In this document: in pieces, positions 3,172-57,167 of the stretch
How positions within the stretch are numbered: position 1 is the first letter of the stretch
Layout of the letters: every line of letters begins with the position of its first letter
From: Acidimicrobiia bacterium
Lineage (GTDB): Bacteria; Actinomycetota; Acidimicrobiia; IMCC26256; JAENVU01
Reading direction: 5' to 3'
DNA length: 64,000 bases
Assembly: GCA_031430375.1 (NCBI GenBank)
Contig: JANPBJ010000149.1
Span: forward strand, 16,776-80,775
Notes under the pieces: model-generated
Database searches by the model: none
Seen by the model: the letters and a program-made list of their open reading frames with translations, nothing else
Told to the model about the DNA's origin: nothing
Position numbers and translations under genes: made by a program

Positions 3172-4146
3172 TCACGAGACCGGCGGCTCCTCAACGGGCA
3201 GTGACCAGGCGACTCGGGTCTTGGTGCGCTCGTAACCCTGGCCTTCGTACAACGCGAGCGCACCGGTGGGATTCTCGGCATCCACGTCGAGGGCGGCGTA
3301 CTCCAGTCCCTCAACCGCAAACGCGCCCGCAGTCGCGCTCAGCAACGCGCGCGCCACACCCTGGCTACGCCAGGCGCGGCGCACCCCGAGTTGGTGGGTC
3401 CACCCTTCACGGAACCCAAGCGCGGGCCAATCGTCAGGGTGAATCGAGTTGAGCGCGTACCCCGCGATCGCGTCACCGTCGAGGACGAGATACGAGCAGT
3501 CGGGACGGAAGTTGTGGTGGCCGGTGACCCATGTGCCCCAGGTCTCGGCATCGAGTTCGCTCGACGCGAAATGATCCCGGAAGGCCTCGTTGTGAGCCAC
3601 CCGTATGGCGTCGTCACGGGTCACGTCGAAGGGTACGAGTTCCAGACCCTCGCGCAGCGCTATCGGCATCGCGCCGTCGGCGAGCGGGCGGCGCATCTCG
3701 TGGTAGTAGCGCAGCGGAGTGAACCCGAACGAGCGAAACAGATCGCTACGAGTGACATCGGCCTGTGATGCCGAAAGCTCCAACCATCCCGGACTCAACA
3801 ACTGCTGGTCGGCCGCGACCTCCCGCCCTCGTTCGGTCTGCCATGCCACCAGTTCCGCGCCCACGCCCATGCCGCGCACGTCCGGGACCACGGCACCGTC
3901 GAGCAACACGCGTCGTTGATGCGAGCTGGGAATACAGACCACCGTTCCCCAGCCGACTATTCGCCCGTCGCACCACCCCAGGCGCGCGTCGCGCGAGGCG
4001 TCGAAGTACGACAACCCCAGCTGTTCCTCCAGGTCGGCTCGCCCCAGCACCTCACCAGTTCGATCGACCGCCTCAACGATCGCGAGCGCGTCGACCCACT
4101 CATCCAGGTCGCCGTCAACCGGTGCCCGCCATTCCACCCGCATCAC
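3172..4146 (-). CDS. two-domain GNAT N-acetyltransferase (MshD-like architecture)
   Basis: 324 aa with two acetyltransferase-like halves joined by HEMRRPL. The second half carries the acetyl-CoA motif QLGVRRAWRSQGVARALL. The architecture recalls mycothiol synthase, but identity is not established. Confidence 0.7.
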   Translation of the reverse strand: MMRVEWRAPVDGDLDEWVDALAIVEAVDRTGEVLGRADLEEQLGLSYFDASRDARLGWCDGRIVGWGTVVCIPSSHQRRVLLDGAVVPDVRGMGVGAELVAWQTERGREVAADQQLLSPGWLELSASQADVTRSDLFRSFGFTPLRYYHEMRRPLADGAMPIALREGLELVPFDVTRDDAIRVAHNEAFRDHFASSELDAETWGTWVTGHHNFRPDCSYLVLDGDAIAGYALNSIHPDDWPALGFREGWTHQLGVRRAWRSQGVARALLSATAGAFAVEGLEYAALDVDAENPTGALALYEGQGYERTKTRVAWSLPVEEPPVS

Positions 4147-8075: not shown

Positions 8076-9947
8076 ATGTTGAAGTTCCGCGTTCGATTGT
8101 TGGCGATCGTCTGCGCGCTCGGTGCGGGGCTGGTCCCCGCGCTCGTCCTCGACACCAGCGCACCCGCCCTATCGAACCCGACGTTGCCCTACCTCACGGT
8201 GGACCACACCATCAGCTCCCAACCGTGGGTCCCGGTCGTGGCAGGGAGCACCACGAACGCGTTCGACCTCGACGGCGGCACATTCTTGCCCTTCGACAAC
8301 GCGTTCTGGTTCGTTGACGACGGCGGGAATCGAGCGTATGAAGTTGACCGCACGACCGGAAAACTCCGGCGCACCATCACACAATCTGCGTTCTCCGCGG
8401 CTCAGCCCGTCGGCGGCGGCACCGCGGCGGGTCTCGGCCGTTCGGATGCACTTCAGTCGGCTGCGTACGACGTGTTTACCGACAGCCTGTACATCTTTTC
8501 CGCCAACTGTTGCGGCGTCGCGCCCTTCCAACCAACTGCATTTCGACTCAAGCGCGACGGTGCTGGAAAGTTCCAAGTCGAGTCGTACCAAGCGCTTCCC
8601 GAAGGCACCAACCCTGCAGCCGCGGGCTACCGGTATGGCTCCGGCCTGTACTTCGGGAAGGGCACCAAGATCCGAACGTACGACTACGCGATGAACACCA
8701 TCGGACCCGACATCAACATCATCGGTGCAGGAACATCCATCACCGGAATGGATTTCCCCGACGCCGACACGCTGCTCCTCACCACGACGCTGAATCAGTT
8801 AGTGAAGGTCTCAACCGCAGACTGGACGGTGGTCAGCGGGTGGACGTTCGACCTCGGGCGTCTCGGAATCCTCGACCCACGATCGGTCGATGCGTCCGGC
8901 GATCAGATCTTTATCGCCGACGGCTACGACCTGCGACCACCCACGGACCCGCTGAAGTACGCGGTCTTCGTGCTGAACCTCAGTGAGACCCCGCCCCCCG
9001 TCGCGTCGTTCGCGCCCCACGTGACCCGCGGCGCGAGCCCGTTGGCGGTGTGGTTCGTCGATCACAGCATCCGCGCCGAAACCCACCTCTGGAACTTCGG
9101 CGACGGCTCTCCCACCTCCACCGAGATCAGCCCGGCGCACATCTACACCACCCCCGGCACCTTCACCGCGACGCTGCAGGTCACGAGCGTCGGTGGCACC
9201 GACAGCGCGAGCAAGGTCATCACCGTGTTGCCCGGAACCGCGCGTACCGGTGGATACACCCTCGACGGTTTCGGCGGTCTCCACCCGTTCAAAATCGGTA
9301 GCACGCCGGTCGCGCCCGCGGCCCGCGGCGCGGTCTACTGGCCGGGCTGGGACATCGCTCGCGGCGCGGCCAGCCTCCCCGACGGGTCCGGCGGCTACAC
9401 CCTCGACGGCTACGGCGGTCTCCACCCATTCCGGATCGGAGCCGGAACCACTCCGCCGGCCGCAAAGAACGGTCCGTACTGGCCCGGAGTCGACGTCGCA
9501 CGCGGCGTCGCACTCATGCCCAACGGTAAGGGCGGACTCTTGGTGGATGCCTACGGCGGGATCCACCGCTTCCGGGTCGGAGCCAGCGCCCTGCCTGGGC
9601 GGCCAACCGGGAGCCCGTACTGGTTGGGTCGGGACATTGCCCAAGGCATCACGATCCTGCCCGACGGATCCGGCGGTTACGTGATCGACCGGAACGGCTC
9701 GCTCCACGCGTTCACTATCGGTGCGAATCCCTCACCCCCCGCTCCGACCAACGTCTGGGCCGCACCGGCGAGCCGGCCCGGTCGGGGTGTGTCACTCCTC
9801 AGCACCGGGACCGGCGGCTACACCATCGACGGCACCGGTGGAGTTCACCGCTTCGCAGTCACGAAGATGCCGCCCGGAACCTCGGGGATCGCCACCTGGC
9901 CCGGGTGGGACATCGCCCGCGACATCGTCGTACTCCCCGCGAACTAA
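8076..9947 (+). CDS. secreted protein: N-terminal unknown domain, PKD domain, five ~47-aa C-terminal repeats
   Basis: Signal-peptide-like N-terminus MLKFRVRLLAIVCALGAGLVPALV. PKD signature WNFGDGSPTS...HIYTTPGTFTATLQVT at aa ~307-385. Five repeats of GGYTLDG-GGLHPF...YWPGWDIARG at aa 392-623. GAAGGGG lies 7 nt before the ATG. Confidence 0.8.
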   Translation: MLKFRVRLLAIVCALGAGLVPALVLDTSAPALSNPTLPYLTVDHTISSQPWVPVVAGSTTNAFDLDGGTFLPFDNAFWFVDDGGNRAYEVDRTTGKLRRTITQSAFSAAQPVGGGTAAGLGRSDALQSAAYDVFTDSLYIFSANCCGVAPFQPTAFRLKRDGAGKFQVESYQALPEGTNPAAAGYRYGSGLYFGKGTKIRTYDYAMNTIGPDINIIGAGTSITGMDFPDADTLLLTTTLNQLVKVSTADWTVVSGWTFDLGRLGILDPRSVDASGDQIFIADGYDLRPPTDPLKYAVFVLNLSETPPPVASFAPHVTRGASPLAVWFVDHSIRAETHLWNFGDGSPTSTEISPAHIYTTPGTFTATLQVTSVGGTDSASKVITVLPGTARTGGYTLDGFGGLHPFKIGSTPVAPAARGAVYWPGWDIARGAASLPDGSGGYTLDGYGGLHPFRIGAGTTPPAAKNGPYWPGVDVARGVALMPNGKGGLLVDAYGGIHRFRVGASALPGRPTGSPYWLGRDIAQGITILPDGSGGYVIDRNGSLHAFTIGANPSPPAPTNVWAAPASRPGRGVSLLSTGTGGYTIDGTGGVHRFAVTKMPPGTSGIATWPGWDIARDIVVLPAN

Positions 9948-9984
9948 AACCCCGCGAACTAAAACCCCGCGAACTAAAACCCGC
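9935..9984. repeat. 15-bp tandem repeat CCCCGCGAACTAAAA x3.3 spanning the stop codon of the PKD gene
   Basis: Read directly at 9935-9949, 9950-9964 and 9965-9979, plus a partial fourth unit. Each unit re-encodes P-A-N-stop in the gene frame. Confidence 0.85.
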
Positions 9985-9998
9985 AGGGGTCCTCGCCC

Positions 9999-11597
9999 TT
10001 ATGCCTGTTCCGTCGCAATGGCTTTGGCCCAGCGGTAGTCGGCCTTGCCCGACGGCGAGCGCACAATCTCATCGACGAGGTGCACTTCCTTCGGAACTTT
10101 GTAACCGGCGATGGAAGCACGGGCATGGTCCGCGAGGGATTGGACGGTGGGGGTGGTCGTCCCCCGTGCCTTGACCACTGCGGCGACGCGCTCGCCCCAA
10201 CGCTCATCAGGCACGCCGACGACGACGACGTCGAACACATCGGGATGCGACTTCAACGCGAGCTCAACCTCTTCGGGGAAGATCTTCTCGCCACCGGAGT
10301 TGATGCTGACCGACCCGCGCCCGAGCAACGTGATCTGGCCGTCGTCCTCTACCCGGGCCATGTCACCGGGCATCACCCACCGCTCGCCGTTGAGCACTAC
10401 AAACGTGGCCGCGGTCTTGGCCTCGTCCTTGTAGTAGCCGAGCGGCATGTAGCCCTTGCGCGCCAGGTGTCCGATCACTCCCGCACCCGGCACGAGCGGC
10501 ACACCCTGATCGTCGATCACCATGGTGTGGTCACCCATCGTGAAGCGCGGCTTGCCTTCGGCGTCCGAGCTGGACACCGAACCCTGGAAGCCGGTCTCTG
10601 ACGCACCGAGTGAATCCACGATCATCACGTTGGGGAGCACTTCACCGATCTTCTGTTTCACCGCGGGCGACAGAATCGCACCGCCGGACCCGATGACGAA
10701 GAACTTCGAGAGGTCGTACTCCACGCCTCCATCTTCGAGGGCCTCGATCAACGGTCGGGCCATCGCGTCGCCGACCAAGCTGATCGTCATCACGTCTTCT
10801 CGCACCACCGTGCGCCAGACCTCGTGCGGGTCCATCTTCTTCTGCGCGCTCAGCACCAACGTGTTGCCCTGGAGCAACAACATGAGCGCGACCCATTGGG
10901 CGGCTCCATGCATCAACGGCGCGATCGGGAACCCCACCAGCGTGCCGCCGTTTCGCGCCACCTCCACCACGGCATCAGGCGAGTCGAACACTCCGCCGCC
11001 GTTCATCAGGGCGCCGATCGTGGAGTGGAAGAAATCTTCCTGGCGCCACATCACACCCTTGGGCATTCCCGTGGTGCCGCCGGTGTAGAGCATGTAGAGG
11101 TCGTCACCGCTGCGCGGCAATGCGTACCGGTCCGGCGAGGCCGCCGAGAGCACGTGTTCGTACTCCACTGCTCCAATCGCGTCCAGGTCCTCATCCGTTC
11201 CGTCCTCGATCGACACGAAGGTCGTGAGTTTCGGAGCTTGATCGCGCACCGCCGCAATACGCGGGATGAACTCGCGACCGTGGACCAGCGCCACCAGATC
11301 CGCGTTGTCGAACAGGTACGCGAGTTCGGCCTCCACGTAGCGGTAGTTCACGTTGATCGGAACCGCACGGGCCTTCCACGCGCCGAACATCGCCTCGACC
11401 CATTCGACTCCGTTATAGGCATAGATGCCGACGTGGTCACCGACCTTGACGCCCGAGGCAATGAGATGGTTCGCGAGACGTGACGCGCGCTCGTCGAGTT
11501 CTGAAAACGTGAGGCGACGATCGCCACACACCACCGCGGTGCGATCTGGCACTGTGCTGGCGACCGCTTCGAACAAGTCGGCGAAGTTCCATTCCAT
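9999..11597 (-). CDS. AMP-forming acyl-CoA synthetase (FadD-type)
   Basis: 532 aa. Motifs: LYTGGTTGMPKGV (AMP-binding P-loop), GYYKDEAKT, GDMARVEDDGQITLLGRGS, SPSGKADYRW. Confidence 0.9.
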   Translation of the reverse strand: MEWNFADLFEAVASTVPDRTAVVCGDRRLTFSELDERASRLANHLIASGVKVGDHVGIYAYNGVEWVEAMFGAWKARAVPINVNYRYVEAELAYLFDNADLVALVHGREFIPRIAAVRDQAPKLTTFVSIEDGTDEDLDAIGAVEYEHVLSAASPDRYALPRSGDDLYMLYTGGTTGMPKGVMWRQEDFFHSTIGALMNGGGVFDSPDAVVEVARNGGTLVGFPIAPLMHGAAQWVALMLLLQGNTLVLSAQKKMDPHEVWRTVVREDVMTISLVGDAMARPLIEALEDGGVEYDLSKFFVIGSGGAILSPAVKQKIGEVLPNVMIVDSLGASETGFQGSVSSSDAEGKPRFTMGDHTMVIDDQGVPLVPGAGVIGHLARKGYMPLGYYKDEAKTAATFVVLNGERWVMPGDMARVEDDGQITLLGRGSVSINSGGEKIFPEEVELALKSHPDVFDVVVVGVPDERWGERVAAVVKARGTTTPTVQSLADHARASIAGYKVPKEVHLVDEIVRSPSGKADYRWAKAIATEQA

Positions 11598-47398: not shown

Positions 47399-48523
47399 CT
47401 AGCGAGGGCGCAGGTTCGTGAGCGGGCGGCCATACGTCCACGCCGCGGCGTCGCCGGGCTCCCAGCGTCCGGAACCAAACGGATGGCCCGCGATGCGTTC
47501 ACGGGCTATGCGCTCGGCGGCTCGACCCGGCGGGACCGACCATTCCCGTCCGAGCGCGAACACCGTGGCCGCCGTGTCCTCGATTCGGGCAGTCGACGCG
47601 ATCGCGTGATCACGCGAATATCCGCCGAACTCTTCCGCGATATTCAGGATTCCACCGCCGTTGACCACGAAGTCAGGTGCGTAGAGAATCCCGCGAACGG
47701 CAAGCGCGTCGTCCATCGCTTCTGATTCGAGTTGATTGTTGGCGCCGCCACAGATCACCTCGCACCGGAGAGCCTCAATCGTGGTCTCGGTCACGACCGC
47801 GCCGAGCGCGCACGGCGCGAGCACATCGCACTCGGCGCTCAGTGCCGCGTCGGGTGCCAGCACCGCGACTCCTAGTTCGTTGCCGACGGCCTGCGCCCGG
47901 GCCGGGTCGAGATCGCAGATCGACACCCGCGCGCCGTCCGCGACGAGCGAACGGGCCAGACTCGATCCGACCTTTCCGGCGCCTTGAATCATCACGTGGC
48001 GATCGGCGAGCGACGTGTTCCCCCATCGGTGCTGCGCGGCGGCGCGCATTCCGGCCCACACGCCAAAGGCAGTAATCGGCGATGGGTCCCCTGATCCGCC
48101 CAACGCCGCACTCACGCCGGTCACCCATGGCGTGAACTCGGCGATGCCATCCATGTCGGCGGTGGTCGCGCCCACGTCTTCGGCGGCCAGGTAGCGCCCA
48201 CCCAGCTCATCGATCGCGCGCCCGAGCACCTCGAGCTGGGCGGGCGAACGCATGGCCGTTGGGTCGTCCCACTGAACGACCGCCTTGCCGCCGCCGAGCG
48301 GCAACCCCGCAACCGAGGCCTTGAGCGACATCGCTTCGGCAAGCCGGAGCGCATCCGCGATCAGCGCATCGTCATCGGAGTAGTCCCAGAACCGGATTCC
48401 ACCGAGCGCCGGCCCGAGCGCGGTGGAATGAATAGCGATCACGGCCCGGATGCCCGCATCGGCATCGACGACACGCACCACCTGCTCGTGACCATCGGGT
48501 ACTTCGACCTCGGTGATCTTCAT
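47399..48523 (-). CDS. Glu/Leu/Phe/Val dehydrogenase family (leucine/valine dehydrogenase-like)
   Basis: Track ORF 47399..48862. The real start is ATG 48523 (MKITEVEV). Motifs LGPALGGIRF, LPLGGGKAVV (catalytic Lys), and NAD loop IQGAGKVGSSLA. Confidence 0.85.
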   Translation of the reverse strand: MKITEVEVPDGHEQVVRVVDADAGIRAVIAIHSTALGPALGGIRFWDYSDDDALIADALRLAEAMSLKASVAGLPLGGGKAVVQWDDPTAMRSPAQLEVLGRAIDELGGRYLAAEDVGATTADMDGIAEFTPWVTGVSAALGGSGDPSPITAFGVWAGMRAAAQHRWGNTSLADRHVMIQGAGKVGSSLARSLVADGARVSICDLDPARAQAVGNELGVAVLAPDAALSAECDVLAPCALGAVVTETTIEALRCEVICGGANNQLESEAMDDALAVRGILYAPDFVVNGGGILNIAEEFGGYSRDHAIASTARIEDTAATVFALGREWSVPPGRAAERIARERIAGHPFGSGRWEPGDAAAWTYGRPLTNLRPR

Positions 48524-48700
48524 AGCTGCAAAGGTAGGCCGATGGAGATCGCACACCCGCACGGCCGGGCGCAGCACTGGTCCAACTGCACCGCAAAACC
48601 GTCGCGCCCTCACCCTGGCGATGGTCCGCGCCGCCGATGACCGCCCGACGACCGGTGACCCACAAGCTGTTTCGGTGCTCGGGGTCCTACGATCGGCTCC

Positions 48701-49810
48701 ATGACGGACCTGCCCGGGCTCGACCGCGCGACCACGCTGCCCGCCTCGGCGTATCGCGACGACGATTGGTATGAGCAGGAACGCCGCGCGATCTTCGCCA
48801 CCACCTGGCAACTCGCCGGATTCCGAGCCCAGCTGACCGAACCGGGCGACTACGTCACCCATGAGATCGCGGGATGGCAGATCGTCGTGCTGCTCGATGA
48901 CGACGGCTCACTCCGCTCGTTCCACAACGTATGCCGCCACCGCGCCGGACCACTGGTGACCGACGATGGCGGACACTGCGCGGCCATCGTCTGTGGATAC
49001 CACGGCTGGCGTTACGCACTCGACGGCAGCCTGGCGAATGCCCGCGACTTTGGAGCAGCGGCGGACTTCGACCCCAACGACTTTGGTCTGCTCCCACTCG
49101 ACGTCGACGAATGGCGCGGCCTCATCTTTGTTCGCATCACTCGCGGTGGGCCCACCCTCGTGGAGTCGCTCGGTGGACTCGTCGGTCGCAGCACCGACCA
49201 ACCAATCGAATCGTTGACCTACAGCCATCGCGTGACGCACATCGTCGACGCCAACTGGAAGACGTACACCGACAACTACGGTGAGGGGTACCACGTTCCC
49301 TTCGTACACGCGGAGCTCAACCTCCAGATCGATGCTCGCGCATACCAGGTAGCAGTTCATGACCGCTGGGTCGAGCACACCGCGCCAACCCGCGACGGGG
49401 CGGTCACGGCCGGGGCGTGGCTTTGGCGGTATCCGAACTTGGGCCTCAACCTCTACCCCGAGGGGATGAACGTGGAGCGCTGGTTGCCCGACGGCCCACG
49501 CCGAACGCGCGTGATCTACGACTTCTTCTTCACCGACACCTCACCCGTTGCCGCCACGACGAACGCGGAGATCGAACGGCTCGGCATTGAGGTGCTCCAA
49601 GAAGACCGCCGTATCTGCGAACGGGTCCAACGGAATCTCGAATCGGGCATCTACGGATTCGGTCGGCTCAGCCCGCGTCACGAGAACGGTGTCCACGCTT
49701 TCCAAACCTGGGTCCGAGACGACCTCGCCCGCTACGAATCAGCCCGCGACGAATCAGCCCGCGACGAATCCGCGGGATCAAGGTCGAGTGCGAGGGAGTT
49801 CACGCAGTAG
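48701..49810 (+). CDS. Rieske [2Fe-2S] aromatic-ring-hydroxylating oxygenase alpha subunit-like
   Basis: 369 aa. Rieske motif CRHRAGPL...CGYHGW and mononuclear iron region [12 protein letters not shown]. The C-terminal tail [14 protein letters not shown] is encoded by a tandem repeat. Confidence 0.85.
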
Positions 49811-50172
49811 CGAAGGCCGGTCGGTCCCGGTCCGTCGGGGAACACGTGACCCAGGTGACCACCACAGCGAGCACACAGGATCTCGGTCCGGACCATGCCG
49901 TGGGCCGTATCGGTGCGTTCCTCGATCGCCCCTTCTTTAGCCGCGGCCCAGAACGACGGCCAGCCGCTGCCGGAATGGAACTTCGTGTCGGAAGAAAACA
50001 GCTCGGCCTGACACCCTGCGCAGCGATAGGTCCCGGGATCTTCGATGTCGTTGTACTCACCGGTGAAGGCGCCTTCGGTGGCCGCTCGGCGCAACACGGC
50101 GAACTGATCGGGACTCAAGCGCGCGCGCCAGTCGTCATCGGTCAGGGTGGTGGGATCCACAGAATCAGTCAT
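49732..50172 (-). CDS. msrB: peptide-methionine (R)-S-oxide reductase
   Basis: 146 aa. Zinc CxxC pairs ([18 protein letters not shown]) and catalytic RYCVNS. After the family-typical end, a 12-17 aa tail ([15 protein letters not shown]) derives from the tandem repeat. Confidence 0.9.
49735..49777. repeat. 15-bp tandem repeat CGAATCAGCCCGCGA x2.9 inside the overlap of two convergent CDS
   Basis: Units at 49735-49749, 49750-49764 and 49765-49777 (partial). It encodes ESARD units on the plus strand and SRADS units on the minus strand. Confidence 0.85.
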
Positions 50173-50193
50173 TTCTCCAGGTTACGGGCTCAT

Positions 50194-50211
50194 CTCCACA
50201 CAATCTCCACA
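50194..50211 (+). promoter_or_regulatory. direct repeat CTCCACA-N4-CTCCACA (11-bp phasing) upstream of the response-regulator gene; candidate autoregulatory site
   Basis: Read directly at 50194-50200 and 50205-50211, about 45-60 nt upstream of the GTG at 50256. Direct repeats at helical phasing are the usual OmpR/PhoB-family site architecture. Confidence 0.3.
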
Positions 50212-50255
50212 GTCCGAGGCCCACACTCTCACCTGCTCATTCGTATCCTTGGTAG

Positions 50256-51005
50256 GTGCCTTCGACCACCGTCTTCGCGCCCTCCGCGCGAACGATCCTC
50301 GTGGTGGAGGACGAAGCCCCCATCGCCGATGCGGTGGCCGCCCGGCTCCGCTCCGAGGGTTACCTCGTGGAGATCGCGGCCGACGGTCCTGACGGCGTGC
50401 GCCGCTGCCAGGAACTTCGCCCCGATCTCGTGATCCTCGACCTCATGCTGCCCGGCCTCGACGGGCTCGAGGTCTGCGAACGGATCCAGGCCGAACGTCC
50501 CGTTCCCGTCTTGATGCTCACCGCCCGTGACTCCGAACGTGATCTCCTCGTGGGTCTGAGCGTGGGCGCGGATGACTACATGACCAAGCCGTTCAGCAGC
50601 CGGGAACTCGTCGCTCGCATTCACGCGTTGCTCCGCCGGGTCGAACGATCCCGCGCCGACGGCGACGCCGGCTCCGCCAAGCTGCGCGCAACCCTCACAG
50701 TGGGTGCGATCGCGATCGACCCCACCACCCGCCGCGTGCATCACACCGGCGAACAGGTGCACCTCACACCTACCGAGTTCGATCTGGTCCTCTTCCTCGC
50801 CGAAACTCCCGGGGTGGTCTTTACCCGTGAAGATCTTCTGGAACAGGTGTGGGGATACGACATCGCGTCGGGCGTTCGGACCGTCGACTCCCATGTTCGT
50901 GCAGTGCGTCGCAAGCTCGGCAACGACGTCATCCGAACCGTCCACGGCGTGGGCTACGCGTTCGGCGACGCGTTGGCCGATCCCGTGGCCGAAGAGCCCG
51001 CGTGA
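50256..51005 (+). CDS. OmpR/PhoB-family response regulator
   Basis: 249 aa. Receiver domain (ILVVEDE, DLVILDLMLPGLDG, DDYMTKPF) plus winged-helix output (LTPTEFDLVLFLA...RTVDSHVRAVRRKL...VHGVGY). Confidence 0.9.
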   Translation: MPSTTVFAPSARTILVVEDEAPIADAVAARLRSEGYLVEIAADGPDGVRRCQELRPDLVILDLMLPGLDGLEVCERIQAERPVPVLMLTARDSERDLLVGLSVGADDYMTKPFSSRELVARIHALLRRVERSRADGDAGSAKLRATLTVGAIAIDPTTRRVHHTGEQVHLTPTEFDLVLFLAETPGVVFTREDLLEQVWGYDIASGVRTVDSHVRAVRRKLGNDVIRTVHGVGYAFGDALADPVAEEPA

Positions 51006-54760: not shown

Positions 54761-55364
54761 GGCGTTGGATGGTCCAGCCGTCCGGTGTCAGCCTGTACGC
54801 AACGCGGTCGTGCACGCGATCATCTCGGTTGCGCCAGAACTCCAAGCGGTCAGGGTGAATGCGATAGCCACCCCAGTGCGGCGGCCGCGGGACCACTTCT
54901 GGGAACCGGGCTTCGACCGTTTCTACCTGGGCCTCGAGCGTCGCTCGATCCGCGACCACTTCACTTTGGCGTGACGCCCACGCACCGATCTGATGACCGC
55001 GGGGCCGACCAGTGAAGTACGTGTCGGACTCGGCCGCGGCAATGCGGGTCGCGAAACCCTCGATCCGGACTTGGGCATCAAGCTGGGGCCAGTAGAACAG
55101 CGCCGCGACTGGCGCGCGATCGCCCACTTCCACACCCTTGCGGCTCTCGTAGTTGGTGAAGAAGACGAAACCGCGAGCGTCGATCCCTCGCAACAGCACG
55201 ACCCGCGAGGAGGGTCGACCATCGGTGTCCACCGTGGCCACGGTCATCGCCGCCGCACGGCCATCCGTTGCTGCCACGGCGGTGTCGTACCACCGAGAGA
55301 ACTGCGCGATCGGATCCGGATCGACAGTGCGCTCATCCAAGGGATCCAACTGATTGGGGGTCAT
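54750..55364 (-). CDS. pdxH: pyridoxamine 5'-phosphate oxidase
   Basis: 204 aa. Motifs PSSRVVLLRGIDARGFVFFTNYESRKG, QVRIEG, and C-terminal EFWRNRDDRVHDRVAY...W.IQRLSP. Confidence 0.9.
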   Translation of the reverse strand: MTPNQLDPLDERTVDPDPIAQFSRWYDTAVAATDGRAAAMTVATVDTDGRPSSRVVLLRGIDARGFVFFTNYESRKGVEVGDRAPVAALFYWPQLDAQVRIEGFATRIAAAESDTYFTGRPRGHQIGAWASRQSEVVADRATLEAQVETVEARFPEVVPRPPHWGGYRIHPDRLEFWRNRDDRVHDRVAYRLTPDGWTIQRLSP

Positions 55365-55437
55365 CCCCCGACGGTACGCCGCCGCAGATGTGAGGTGGGT
55401 ACTTGCTCAAGCGGCCAGGAACCGGGAGAATCCCAGG

Positions 55438-55962
55438 ATGGGCTTTCATCACCTCGCCATCGCCACCCGTGACCTCGAAGCGAATCACACCTTCTATACC
55501 GAGGCCATGGGGTTCACGCTCGAACGCACCAGCGTCGCGCCGACCGACACCGGCGGCTGGGCGCGCCACGTGTTCTACGACACCGGGAACGGCGAAATGA
55601 TCGCGTTCTGGGATCTGCACGATCCCACGATCGGCGACTTCGAGCCATCGATCTCGCAGGGGCTCGGACTCCCGCAGTGGACGAACCACATCGCGTTCAA
55701 CGCGCCGACGATCGACGCCCTGGCCGTGGCTCGCCAACGTTGGCAGGACCACGGGCACTACGTGTACGAGATCGACCACGGCTGGTGCACGTCGATCTAC
55801 ACCACCGACCCGAACGGGATCATGGTGGAGTTCTGCACCACGACGGTCGTGGCAACCGACGCGGACCGCACCGACGCTCTCCGACTGCTGCGCGAGGTAA
55901 CACCTCAGCTCGAAGCCGCACCCACCGGCACTCTCTACTCGCCTACGCCCGCCCCGGTCTGA
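55438..55962 (+). CDS. VOC family protein (glyoxalase/dioxygenase fold)
   Basis: Track ORF 55354..55962, ATG 55438 (MGFHHLAIATRDLEANHTFYTEAMGF). Confidence 0.75.
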   Translation: MGFHHLAIATRDLEANHTFYTEAMGFTLERTSVAPTDTGGWARHVFYDTGNGEMIAFWDLHDPTIGDFEPSISQGLGLPQWTNHIAFNAPTIDALAVARQRWQDHGHYVYEIDHGWCTSIYTTDPNGIMVEFCTTTVVATDADRTDALRLLREVTPQLEAAPTGTLYSPTPAPV

Positions 55963-57167
55963 CCGCTCACTCCGGCGATGACGCCATCGGCGTGGAGCGC
56001 GGCGAGCGTCGCTGTGTCGAGATCGAGGAGCGCCACGAGCACCGCGTCAGTGTGTTCTCCCAGCGCGGGCCCGACTGTGCGGATGGCGCCCGGCGTACGC
56101 GACAGCTTCGGAACAATCCCCGTCATCGGGACCGCCCGCTCAAAACCAGCCGCCAAGCGAACGATCATCTCGCGCGCCGCAACGTGTGAATCGGCCGCGA
56201 TATCAGGTGCGGTGTTGATAAGCCCAGCCGGGATCGAGTGCGCCTCGAGCTGATGCAACACTGCGGTGGCCGGGAGGGTCACCGTCCAAGCGGCAACCTC
56301 GGAATCAAGCGCGATCTGGCCGGCCGCACGTGCGGCATGCGTGGCATACGGCGCGGCCAACTCCGGCCGATTCATCGCATCCGTGAGGCGAGCGAAGACC
56401 GCGTCGGCATTCGCGGCGATCACGACGTCACGCCCATCCGCGGTGGGATACGCGTTCGACGGTGCGACGCCGGGCAGATAACCGCCGCTGCGACCACGGA
56501 CGATTCCACCGAGCTCAAAGTCGGCAACCGTCGATTCCATGAGCGCCATCACCGCTTCGTAGATCGCCACATCCACTTCCTGGCCGAGTCCGGACCGATG
56601 CCGTTCGTTGACGGCCGCCAACGTCCCGATCACCGCGAACAGCGCCGCCAGGGCATCGCCCAAGGAGATGCCGGCCCGCGCCGGCGGACGATCCGGATCG
56701 CCGGTGGTATGACGGATCCCACCCATCGCTTCGCCGATGGCGCCGAACCCTGGCTCGTGGGCCCGTGGCCCGTCCTGACCGAAACCGGACACGTGCGTGA
56801 GAATCAGGCGCGGGTTCACGGCACTCAGCGCGTCGTATCCAAGCCCCCACTTCGCCAAGGTCCCAGGCTTGAAGTTCTCGATCACCACGTCGCAGCGGCC
56901 GGTGAGCGACCGCACCAAGTCCCGGCCCCGGTCGCTGCGAAGGTCGATCGCGATCGATTGCTTGTTGCGTGCGATCGCCGGCCACCACAACGAGCGACCG
57001 TCGAGCGTTACCCCCCACCCGCGCATCGGGTCACCCGATCCCGGCGCCTCGACCTTGATCACCTCGGCCCCGAGGTCACCCAACAGCTGTGCCGCGAACG
57101 GGCCCGCGATGAATGAACCGAGTTCGAGTACTCGCAGACCGGCGAGCGGCGGTGATGCGTCCGTCAC
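55935..57167 (-). CDS. family III CoA-transferase (CaiB/BaiF)
   Basis: 410 aa with a GTG start. Motifs LRVLELGSFIAGPFAAQLLGDLGAEVIKVE, VVIENFKPG, and the catalytic Asp region. Confidence 0.85.
   Translation of the reverse strand: MTDASPPLAGLRVLELGSFIAGPFAAQLLGDLGAEVIKVEAPGSGDPMRGWGVTLDGRSLWWPAIARNKQSIAIDLRSDRGRDLVRSLTGRCDVVIENFKPGTLAKWGLGYDALSAVNPRLILTHVSGFGQDGPRAHEPGFGAIGEAMGGIRHTTGDPDRPPARAGISLGDALAALFAVIGTLAAVNERHRSGLGQEVDVAIYEAVMALMESTVADFELGGIVRGRSGGYLPGVAPSNAYPTADGRDVVIAANADAVFARLTDAMNRPELAAPYATHAARAAGQIALDSEVAAWTVTLPATAVLHQLEAHSIPAGLINTAPDIAADSHVAAREMIVRLAAGFERAVPMTGIVPKLSRTPGAIRTVGPALGEHTDAVLVALLDLDTATLAALHADGVIAGVSGQTGAGVGE

Follow-up and report, generated by a model that had tools for sequence, protein, structure and literature searches.

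The stretch of DNA analysed here, referred to as the window, comprises 64,000 nucleotides of contig JANPBJ010000149.1 (positions 16,776 to 80,775) from the metagenome-assembled genome (MAG) of an Acidimicrobiia bacterium (GCA_031430375.1). Within it, a gene for a Rieske non-haem iron oxygenase alpha-subunit-like protein (48701..49810, plus strand), an open reading frame (ORF) of 369 aa, converges on msrB, the gene for peptide-methionine (R)-S-oxide reductase (49732..50172, minus strand, 146 aa), and a 15-bp tandem repeat lies where the two genes meet. An earlier reading made from the sequence alone (the sequence-only reading) had described a tail-to-tail overlap of 79 nt between the two coding sequences (CDS), and the ORFs bear this out (49732..49810, both strands). 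The stop codons of the Rieske gene (TAG, 49808..49810) and of msrB (49732..49734) are each located inside the opposite CDS, so that the overlap is independent of the choice of start codons. The Rieske stop lies antisense to the codons for Arg121-Tyr122 (CGC TAC) of MsrB, which belong to the conserved catalytic motif RYCVNS. Third codon positions of both frames coincide (position 3 at coordinate mod 3 = 1), which corresponds to phase 123:213.

Both overlapping ORFs are real genes, with homology reaching nearly to their ends. The Rieske protein matches the Pfam families Rieske (PF00355) and Ring_hydroxyl_A (PF00848); its catalytic domain ends at residue 342 and residues 343-369 form the tail. 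Comparison with NCBIfam reached no equivalog cut-off, GbcA-like being the top sub-threshold match. Judged by its profile matches, the minus-strand ORF has the properties of an MsrB (SelR) enzyme: SelR (PF01641, E = 1.6e-48) matches up to residue 132 and TIGR00357 up to residue 135 (163.9 bits, above the cut-off of 113), and the translation contains CAGC and CARC, two CxxC zinc motifs, as well as RYCVNS with the catalytic Cys. Solved MsrB structures align to the protein only from residue 4 to approximately residue 135-138. The exact Rieske protein is on record from NCBI and Logan, the exact 146-aa MsrB from a single NCBI contig only. The nearest relatives of the locus are MAGs of Acidimicrobiia.

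Tandem Repeats Finder (TRF) reported a period of 15 bp with 2.9 copies and a 96% match (score 81) at 49727..49770. The array consists of three 15-bp units (49727..49771) and is in frame in both ORFs, i.e. on both strands. In the register chosen in the sequence-only reading, CGAATCAGCCCGCGA, there are two exact copies (49735..49764), and the translations quoted there for the two strands were correct. Unit 1 (49727..49741) is GCCCGCTACGAATCA; its CTA at 49732..49734 is the TAG stop of msrB, and its TAC encodes Tyr in the Rieske frame. Unit 2 (49742..49756), GCCCGCGACGAATCA, carries a G at 49748 where relatives have a T, as revealed by alignments with the loci L083, L084 and L092. This change converts TAG on the msrB strand to TCG (Ser) and Tyr in the Rieske frame to Asp. 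The same change is found at 49763 in unit 3 (49757..49771), GCCCGCGACGAATCC, which is nearest to the body of msrB, and removes the stop that is functional for msrB in relatives.

Only four arrays with a TRF score of at least 60 exist across the entire 64 kb, which shows that the msrB/Rieske array is not background. With copies above background and a copy number that varies among relatives (see below), it would class as a coding variable-number tandem repeat (VNTR) or minisatellite, the unit of 15 bp being a multiple of three and in frame in both predicted CDS. The earlier term ‘bidirectionally coding minisatellite’ is correct as a description.

Copy number in relatives and its effect on the two proteins

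A check of relatives for one, two or more units, as proposed in the sequence-only reading, revealed all of these states. DNA alignment gave one unit in L091, two in L092 and three in L083 and L084. Since these contigs are mutually 99–99.8% identical in both genes, the array is a true VNTR. L085–L088 and L081 are single-unit outgroups to the window. At the protein level, the Rieske cluster formed at ≥90% identity has members of 359, 364 (ARYEPARYESAGS), 369 (ARYESARYESARYESAGS) and 391 aa, the last of which combines a longer N-terminus with a two-unit tail. A metagenome-wide pattern scan for at least two units yielded only two matches, L089 and L090, which are unrelated and due to chance.

In L091, L092, L083 and L084, every unit contains TAC, and its TA together with the preceding C is the antisense of the msrB stop TAG. 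MsrB is constant at 136 aa (ending in DPADS) and the overlap is constant at 49 nt throughout these four loci. As each TAC unit only adds an in-frame stop past msrB's own, expansion by such units lengthens the Rieske protein alone. GAC in units 2 and 3, versus TAC in the relatives, is found only in the window and in L093, a contig from the Logan assembly of run SRR20217180. The T to G changes at 49748 and 49763 remove two in-array stops, and msrB consequently reads to the TAG of unit 1, which adds 10 residues and results in the 79-nt overlap. The closest relatives of MsrB (P0001–P0003) have 136 aa, the window protein being 10 aa longer.

Both tails are indeed longer than in close relatives (Rieske alleles of 359–364 aa, MsrB of 136 aa). 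The proposal that both proteins were lengthened together by one expansion of the repeat is not supported, however: in the three-unit loci L083 and L084 only the Rieske protein has grown, and the additional 10 aa of MsrB required two stop losses. A related claim, that any change in copy number alters both proteins in frame, applies to the two stop-less units but not to TAC units, with which the Rieske protein alone changes. The assumption that msrB usually stops a few residues past RYC(I/V)NS also has to be revised. In the 120 nearest relatives, 10–24 residues follow this motif (mode 11), so that the 20 residues of the window protein are long but within range.

Unit ends differ in a concerted manner, being TCA/TCA/TCC in the window versus TCG/TCG/TCG in L083. 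Slippage or conversion within an array typically leaves such a pattern, as may be the case here. The two T to G changes would have arisen either separately or from a single mutation that was copied within the array.

Conservation and age of the overlap

The overlap was compared in 12 Acidimicrobiia loci that have a convergent msrB downstream of a Rieske gene. It measures 52–70 nt in seven of them. L008 has a 4-nt overlap (TTAG) in the same phase as the window, the stops adjoin in L005, and an 18-nt gap separates them in L003; apparent frame disruptions make the values for L010 and L040 unreliable. In all relatives, the convergent stops either overlap or are at most 18 nt apart. Antisense transcription overlap, which had been thought to be forced by the repeat, is therefore not repeat-specific.

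Overlaps of 49–70 nt are seen in L001, L002, L004, L006, L007, L009, L069, L083–L088, L091 and L092. The 49-nt overlap of L083, L085, L086, L088, L091 and L092 corresponds to 49772..49810 of the window plus one unit. With 49 nt overlapping in the single-unit relatives L085–L088 and L091, which have no extra units, and 52–70 nt in more distant members of the clade, the overlap is not built around the repeat as originally proposed. All Rieske ORFs with a long overlap terminate opposite the Arg-Tyr codons (CGC TAC) of RYCVNS in msrB, with a TAG or a TAA in antisense, and this stop position is shared by L001, L002, L004, L006, L007, L009, L069, L083, L085, L088, L091 and L092. The terminal residues GS(R/S)SSASEFTQ together with the stop are the antisense reading of 12 msrB residues. 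A long Rieske tail ending in SE(F/L)(T/M)Q was found in 28 of the 120 nearest cluster representatives; most of the other 92 end 5–9 aa past the conserved WV motif. Family members lacking the tail mark the normal Rieske end, and the overlap in L003, L005 and L008 is none or at most 4 nt.

From these alignments, conservation of the Rieske/msrB overlap extends throughout this Acidimicrobiia clade, and the overlap appears to be older than the repeat. Its conservation in other genomes argues against a frameshift or sequencing error. The gene pair thus has the characters expected of a genuine long convergent overlap of the stop-loss type, and the 4-nt stop/stop overlap of L008, which is in the phase of the window, is in keeping with an origin in which a point mutation abolished the Rieske stop.

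Sequence variation within the overlap was analysed for 33 overlapping nucleotides across 13 loci. Variable sites amount to 8/11 at the shared wobble position 3, 1/11 at position 1 and 3/11 at position 2. In the adjacent msrB-only sequence of the same loci, the corresponding values are 29/30, 4/30 and 7/30. The match of the two patterns indicates that the overlap evolves like ordinary msrB coding DNA and that the Rieske frame adds no evident constraint. To our knowledge, the catalytic motif of msrB is conserved in all life, and the variation fits a situation in which msrB dictates the sequence of the overlapped segment. The idea that the Rieske tail occupies a ‘shadow frame’, namely the most stop-free antisense frame of msrB, had to be rejected. 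The plus-strand frame used by the tail has the most stops across msrB, six versus none and two in the others, and it is open only across the final ~76 nt of msrB.

Surroundings of the overlap and other convergent junctions

When the region 48675..49810 is compared with L091, L083 and L092, the Rieske CDS stands out as a low-divergence block with 93–96% DNA identity versus 84–90% in its neighbours, the right edge of the block being at the Rieske stop. Third-position identity between the window and the L091 lineage is 0.889 for the Rieske gene, 0.659 for msrB, 0.723 for an ELFV dehydrogenase gene and 0.764 for a response regulator gene. This suggests that lineages exchanged the oxygenase gene at a later time than the flanking genes, and that the array and the overlapped part of msrB moved with it.

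The Rieske gene is absent from L081 (6380..6470) and L082 (1040..1130; compare 48685..48700 and 49727..49741 of the window), where msrB is followed by 50 nt and then by the ELFV dehydrogenase gene. The msrB of the Rieske-less relative is 94% identical to that of the window. At the joint GGTCC-TACGA-GTCGGCAGGG, a box found just upstream of the Rieske start (GTCCTACGATC) is joined to the 3' unit; it looks plausibly like a microhomology deletion, with CTACGA marking the joint in L081. Direct repeats flanking the Rieske gene were considered as evidence for insertion and rejected, as the longest substrings common to the upstream and 3' regions are non-significant in every locus. A conserved TACGAT box upstream and a Tyr/stop codon account better for the shared CTACGA. 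In the window, GTCCTACGATC is located at 48685..48695, 5–15 nt upstream of the Rieske ATG (48701), and the same spacing is found in L001, L002, L005, L006, L007, L008 and L091. With its TACGAT, the box resembles a -10 element (TANNNT) spaced for an mRNA with a very short leader or none; a sigma-70 consensus scan detected no promoter at this site. On the other side of the overlap, at 49817..49836 in msrB, there is an imperfect 10-bp repeat in two copies, CCGGTCGGTC/CCGGTCCGTC, encoding part of DGPGPTG (TRF score 33), which is probably incidental.

A search for terminator-like sites in 48400..50400 gave none, and an Rfam search of the region gave no match. RNA folds of either strand and the DNA fold of the array region were no better than those of shuffled sequences (z = -0.52, +0.64 and -0.28). 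A role as hairpin or bidirectional intrinsic terminator was rejected, as there is only a 6-bp stem CCCGCG/CGCGGG (CCCGCG-N7-CGCGGG, 49759..49777) and no T-tract site.

Duplications unrelated to the 15-bp unit were found at the same junction in other loci. L002 has a 15-bp duplication in 2.1 copies (~4037..4068), by which the MsrB tail reads …DPTDADPTDAA. In L004, the unit of a 21-bp repeat in 2.3 copies (~4043..4090) contains the msrB stop, so that only the Rieske protein gains the repeat SPAQASSAPAQASSA. L008 has a 9-bp duplication in two copies (~4031..4048). Three independent arrays scoring at least 60 (window/L083, L002 and L004) fall in ~3.6 kb of junction sequence, versus ~1 per 16 kb across the window. 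This excess, together with the unrelated units, indicates a junction that is tolerant of or prone to duplications rather than a specific designed element.

The window contains a second array with a 15-bp unit, a perfect CCCCGCGAACTAAAA in 3.2 copies at 9935..9982, so that both of its 15-bp arrays are located at convergent junctions. The flanking genes are a plus-strand ORF for a PKD-domain protein (8076..9947), the TAA stop of which lies inside unit 1, and a minus-strand ORF for an AMP-binding enzyme (9999..11597), which ends at 9999. The unit has a CCCGCGA core in common with the msrB/Rieske unit and embeds a stop codon. Pairing is possible between its last copy and CCCGCAGGGG downstream, the DNA fold having a z of -1.89 (8 of 200 shuffles were as good). 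An exact-protein look-up for the gene adjoining this array gave no record. A further convergent overlap, 28 nt long (55935..55962), involves a glyoxalase-family gene (55354..55962, plus strand) and a CoA-transferase family III gene (55935..57167, minus strand), with homology on both sides. Three more long overlaps (99, 190 and 75 nt), called by a crude criterion of GC content by codon position, are probably spurious, their plus-strand ORFs being without Pfam support. Among these additional calls, only the 28-nt overlap is supported on both sides.

Origin of the array and relation to known systems

The probable explanation, in our view, is an in-frame 15-bp VNTR that varies between strains and lies in a linker under weak constraint, within a convergent overlap that is old and shared across the clade; its present state would be due to near-neutral slippage and to stop loss through point mutation or conversion. 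From the states preserved in the relatives we infer the following order of events. The two genes would already have been convergent neighbours with stops overlapping by 4 nt (TTAG), as is still the case in L008. Loss of the Rieske stop would then have extended this ORF, in the phase with coinciding wobble positions, to the TAG antisense to Arg-Tyr of msrB, creating an overlap of ~49–70 nt. In the lineage of the window, slippage would have duplicated a 15-bp unit spanning the msrB stop, each unit adding ARYES to the C-terminal helix of the Rieske protein and leaving msrB unaffected. Finally, in this genome alone, T to G in units 2 and 3 (TAG to TCG) would have allowed msrB to extend to the TAG of unit 1 with a gain of 10 residues, either by one mutation spread through slippage or intra-array conversion or by two mutations. 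The tails are most likely dispensable and the changes neutral or nearly so, no function being needed as explanation.

Several points weigh against this account. Two identical T to G changes at homologous positions of adjoining units are unlikely as independent neutral events; conversion or slippage, or else selection for read-through, is required. The repeated duplications at one junction could have a mechanistic cause, for instance hairpin stalling or convergent transcription. Only one genome is known to encode the 146-aa MsrB. In the AlphaFold2 model, the C-terminal helix of the Rieske protein (residues 329–359) runs through the repeat with a predicted local distance difference test score (pLDDT) of 94 for residues 341–350 and 74 for residues 351–360, so the Rieske extension may be structured and not entirely inert.

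The modelled helix would also suit a selected bidirectionally coding minisatellite, in which copy number and stop state tune the length of the Rieske helix and the MsrB tail, or the interference by convergent transcription. Copy number is polymorphic between near-identical strains, an identical substitution is found in two units, the model has the repeat prolonging the helix, and the long overlap is kept in 28 of the 120 cluster representatives. We nevertheless consider such selection quite unlikely. The Rieske tails of the clade vary freely both in length (22–38 aa past the WV motif) and in sequence and are absent from L003, L005, P0128 and P0144, and the MsrB tails of 10–24 aa are without a conserved motif. 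According to AlphaFold2, the added MsrB residues 137–146 have a pLDDT below 50 and are predicted to be disordered; the last seven residues of the Rieske protein also have a pLDDT below 50. A 15-bp unit is unable to switch a frame on or off, and regulatory structure was not detected by the terminator, fold and Rfam searches. Exchange or deletion of a gene cassette at the junction, in place of simple slippage within the array, is unlikely as the source of the array state, although parts of the locus history speak for it. The Rieske gene and the overlapped msrB tail would recombine between lineages, with the right edge in the overlap and the differences in repeat and stops representing joints or mosaic units. 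The higher identity of the Rieske CDS compared with the flanking genes, at all positions as well as at third positions, the identity step at the Rieske stop, and the joint of the Rieske-less L081 and L082, which connects the upstream box to the 3' unit via CTACGA, are in line with this. Left unexplained are the head-to-tail 15-bp units and the series of one, two and three units among strains of at least 99% identity, both of which slippage explains directly, and the 6-nt microhomology is not significant alone (161 of 300 shuffles equal it). Recombination does explain that the array travels with the Rieske gene, and it is compatible with slippage and not exclusive.

An artefact of assembly or sequencing, for example a strain chimera, affecting the array or the T to G changes, with a true MsrB of 136 aa, is extremely improbable. 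The source is a MAG, the 146-aa protein comes from the one NCBI contig, and strain variants with differing arrays exist in nature. On the other hand, the separate Logan assembly (L093, k = 31) shows 100% identity with the window along 3,245 nt that take in the array, up to the Rieske stop, where this contig ends; it is possibly from the same sample and thus not a fully independent confirmation. The array spans 45 bp and its longest exact internal repeat is 22 nt, shorter than the reads and the assembler k-mers, so that its copy number is resolvable and collapse or chimerism is not expected. A broader proposal, to which we give little credence, is that 3' convergent junctions in this lineage are a mutational hot spot, due for example to convergent transcription or hairpin-stalled replication, which repeatedly produces stop-carrying in-frame tandem duplications. 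The independent duplications in L002, L004 and L008, the second stop-embedding array and the location of both 15-bp arrays of the window at convergent junctions are consistent with it. If it were true, the hot spot would act as a general ‘ratchet’ by which convergent overlaps grow, the second gene being lengthened only once a stop has been lost, after the first has already grown.

Neither long convergent overlaps nor coding VNTRs are new in themselves, and the proposed near-neutral VNTR is a variant of both. Stop-codon loss and extension of the 3' end are a described source of long convergent overlaps (Rogozin et al., 2002, as cited in PMC2478687). Only the convergent orientation was reported to allow genuine overlaps of more than 60 bp, and these are rare: of 178 examined in 338 genomes, 54 were candidates (Palleja et al., 2008; PMC2478687). 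The Rieske/msrB pair resembles these in that real genes have mutually internal stops, that reading would have continued to the next in-frame stop once the original one was lost, and that the arrangement is conserved in relatives. It differs in holding a copy-variable tandem repeat, with an overlap of 49 versus 79 nt between strains. Its phase, 123:213, accounts for 47% of all convergent overlaps, being the commonest, but for only 18% of those of at least 5 nt, where it is the rarest (Lillo and Krakauer, 2007; PMC2174442). A search of the literature for convergent overlaps that contain a tandem repeat found nothing relevant.

Coding VNTRs are familiar from the mycobacterial interspersed repetitive unit (MIRU)-VNTR loci of Mycobacterium tuberculosis, for instance, some of which overlap stop and start codons of co-directional genes and have units of 40–100 bp. 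Head-to-tail units that are multiples of three, a strain-variable copy number, probable replication slippage and a location at gene ends are shared with the Rieske/msrB array. The latter has a unit of only 15 bp, which is in frame on both strands of convergent genes and embeds the stop of one of them, so that expansion is asymmetric until the stop mutates. Simple-sequence repeats act as on/off switches for genes in phase-variable contingency loci, and there, too, a slippage-driven change in repeat number alters the encoded protein. The array does not qualify as such a locus: its 15-bp unit (3 x 5), located at both 3' ends, shifts neither frame nor promoter spacing and changes only the length of the tails.

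The array reveals no new mechanism or function and nothing points to a phenotype; its value is mainly that of a well-resolved evolutionary series. Close relatives preserve the intermediates (4-nt and 49-nt overlap; one, two and three units; stop loss) of a stepwise lengthening of convergent overlaps, in which a tandem duplication spanning a stop codon acts asymmetrically on the two strands. For the annotation of such genomes it follows that genuine, conserved convergent overlaps can exceed 60 nt, and that one 15-bp VNTR can cause strain-level differences in the length of two adjoining proteins.

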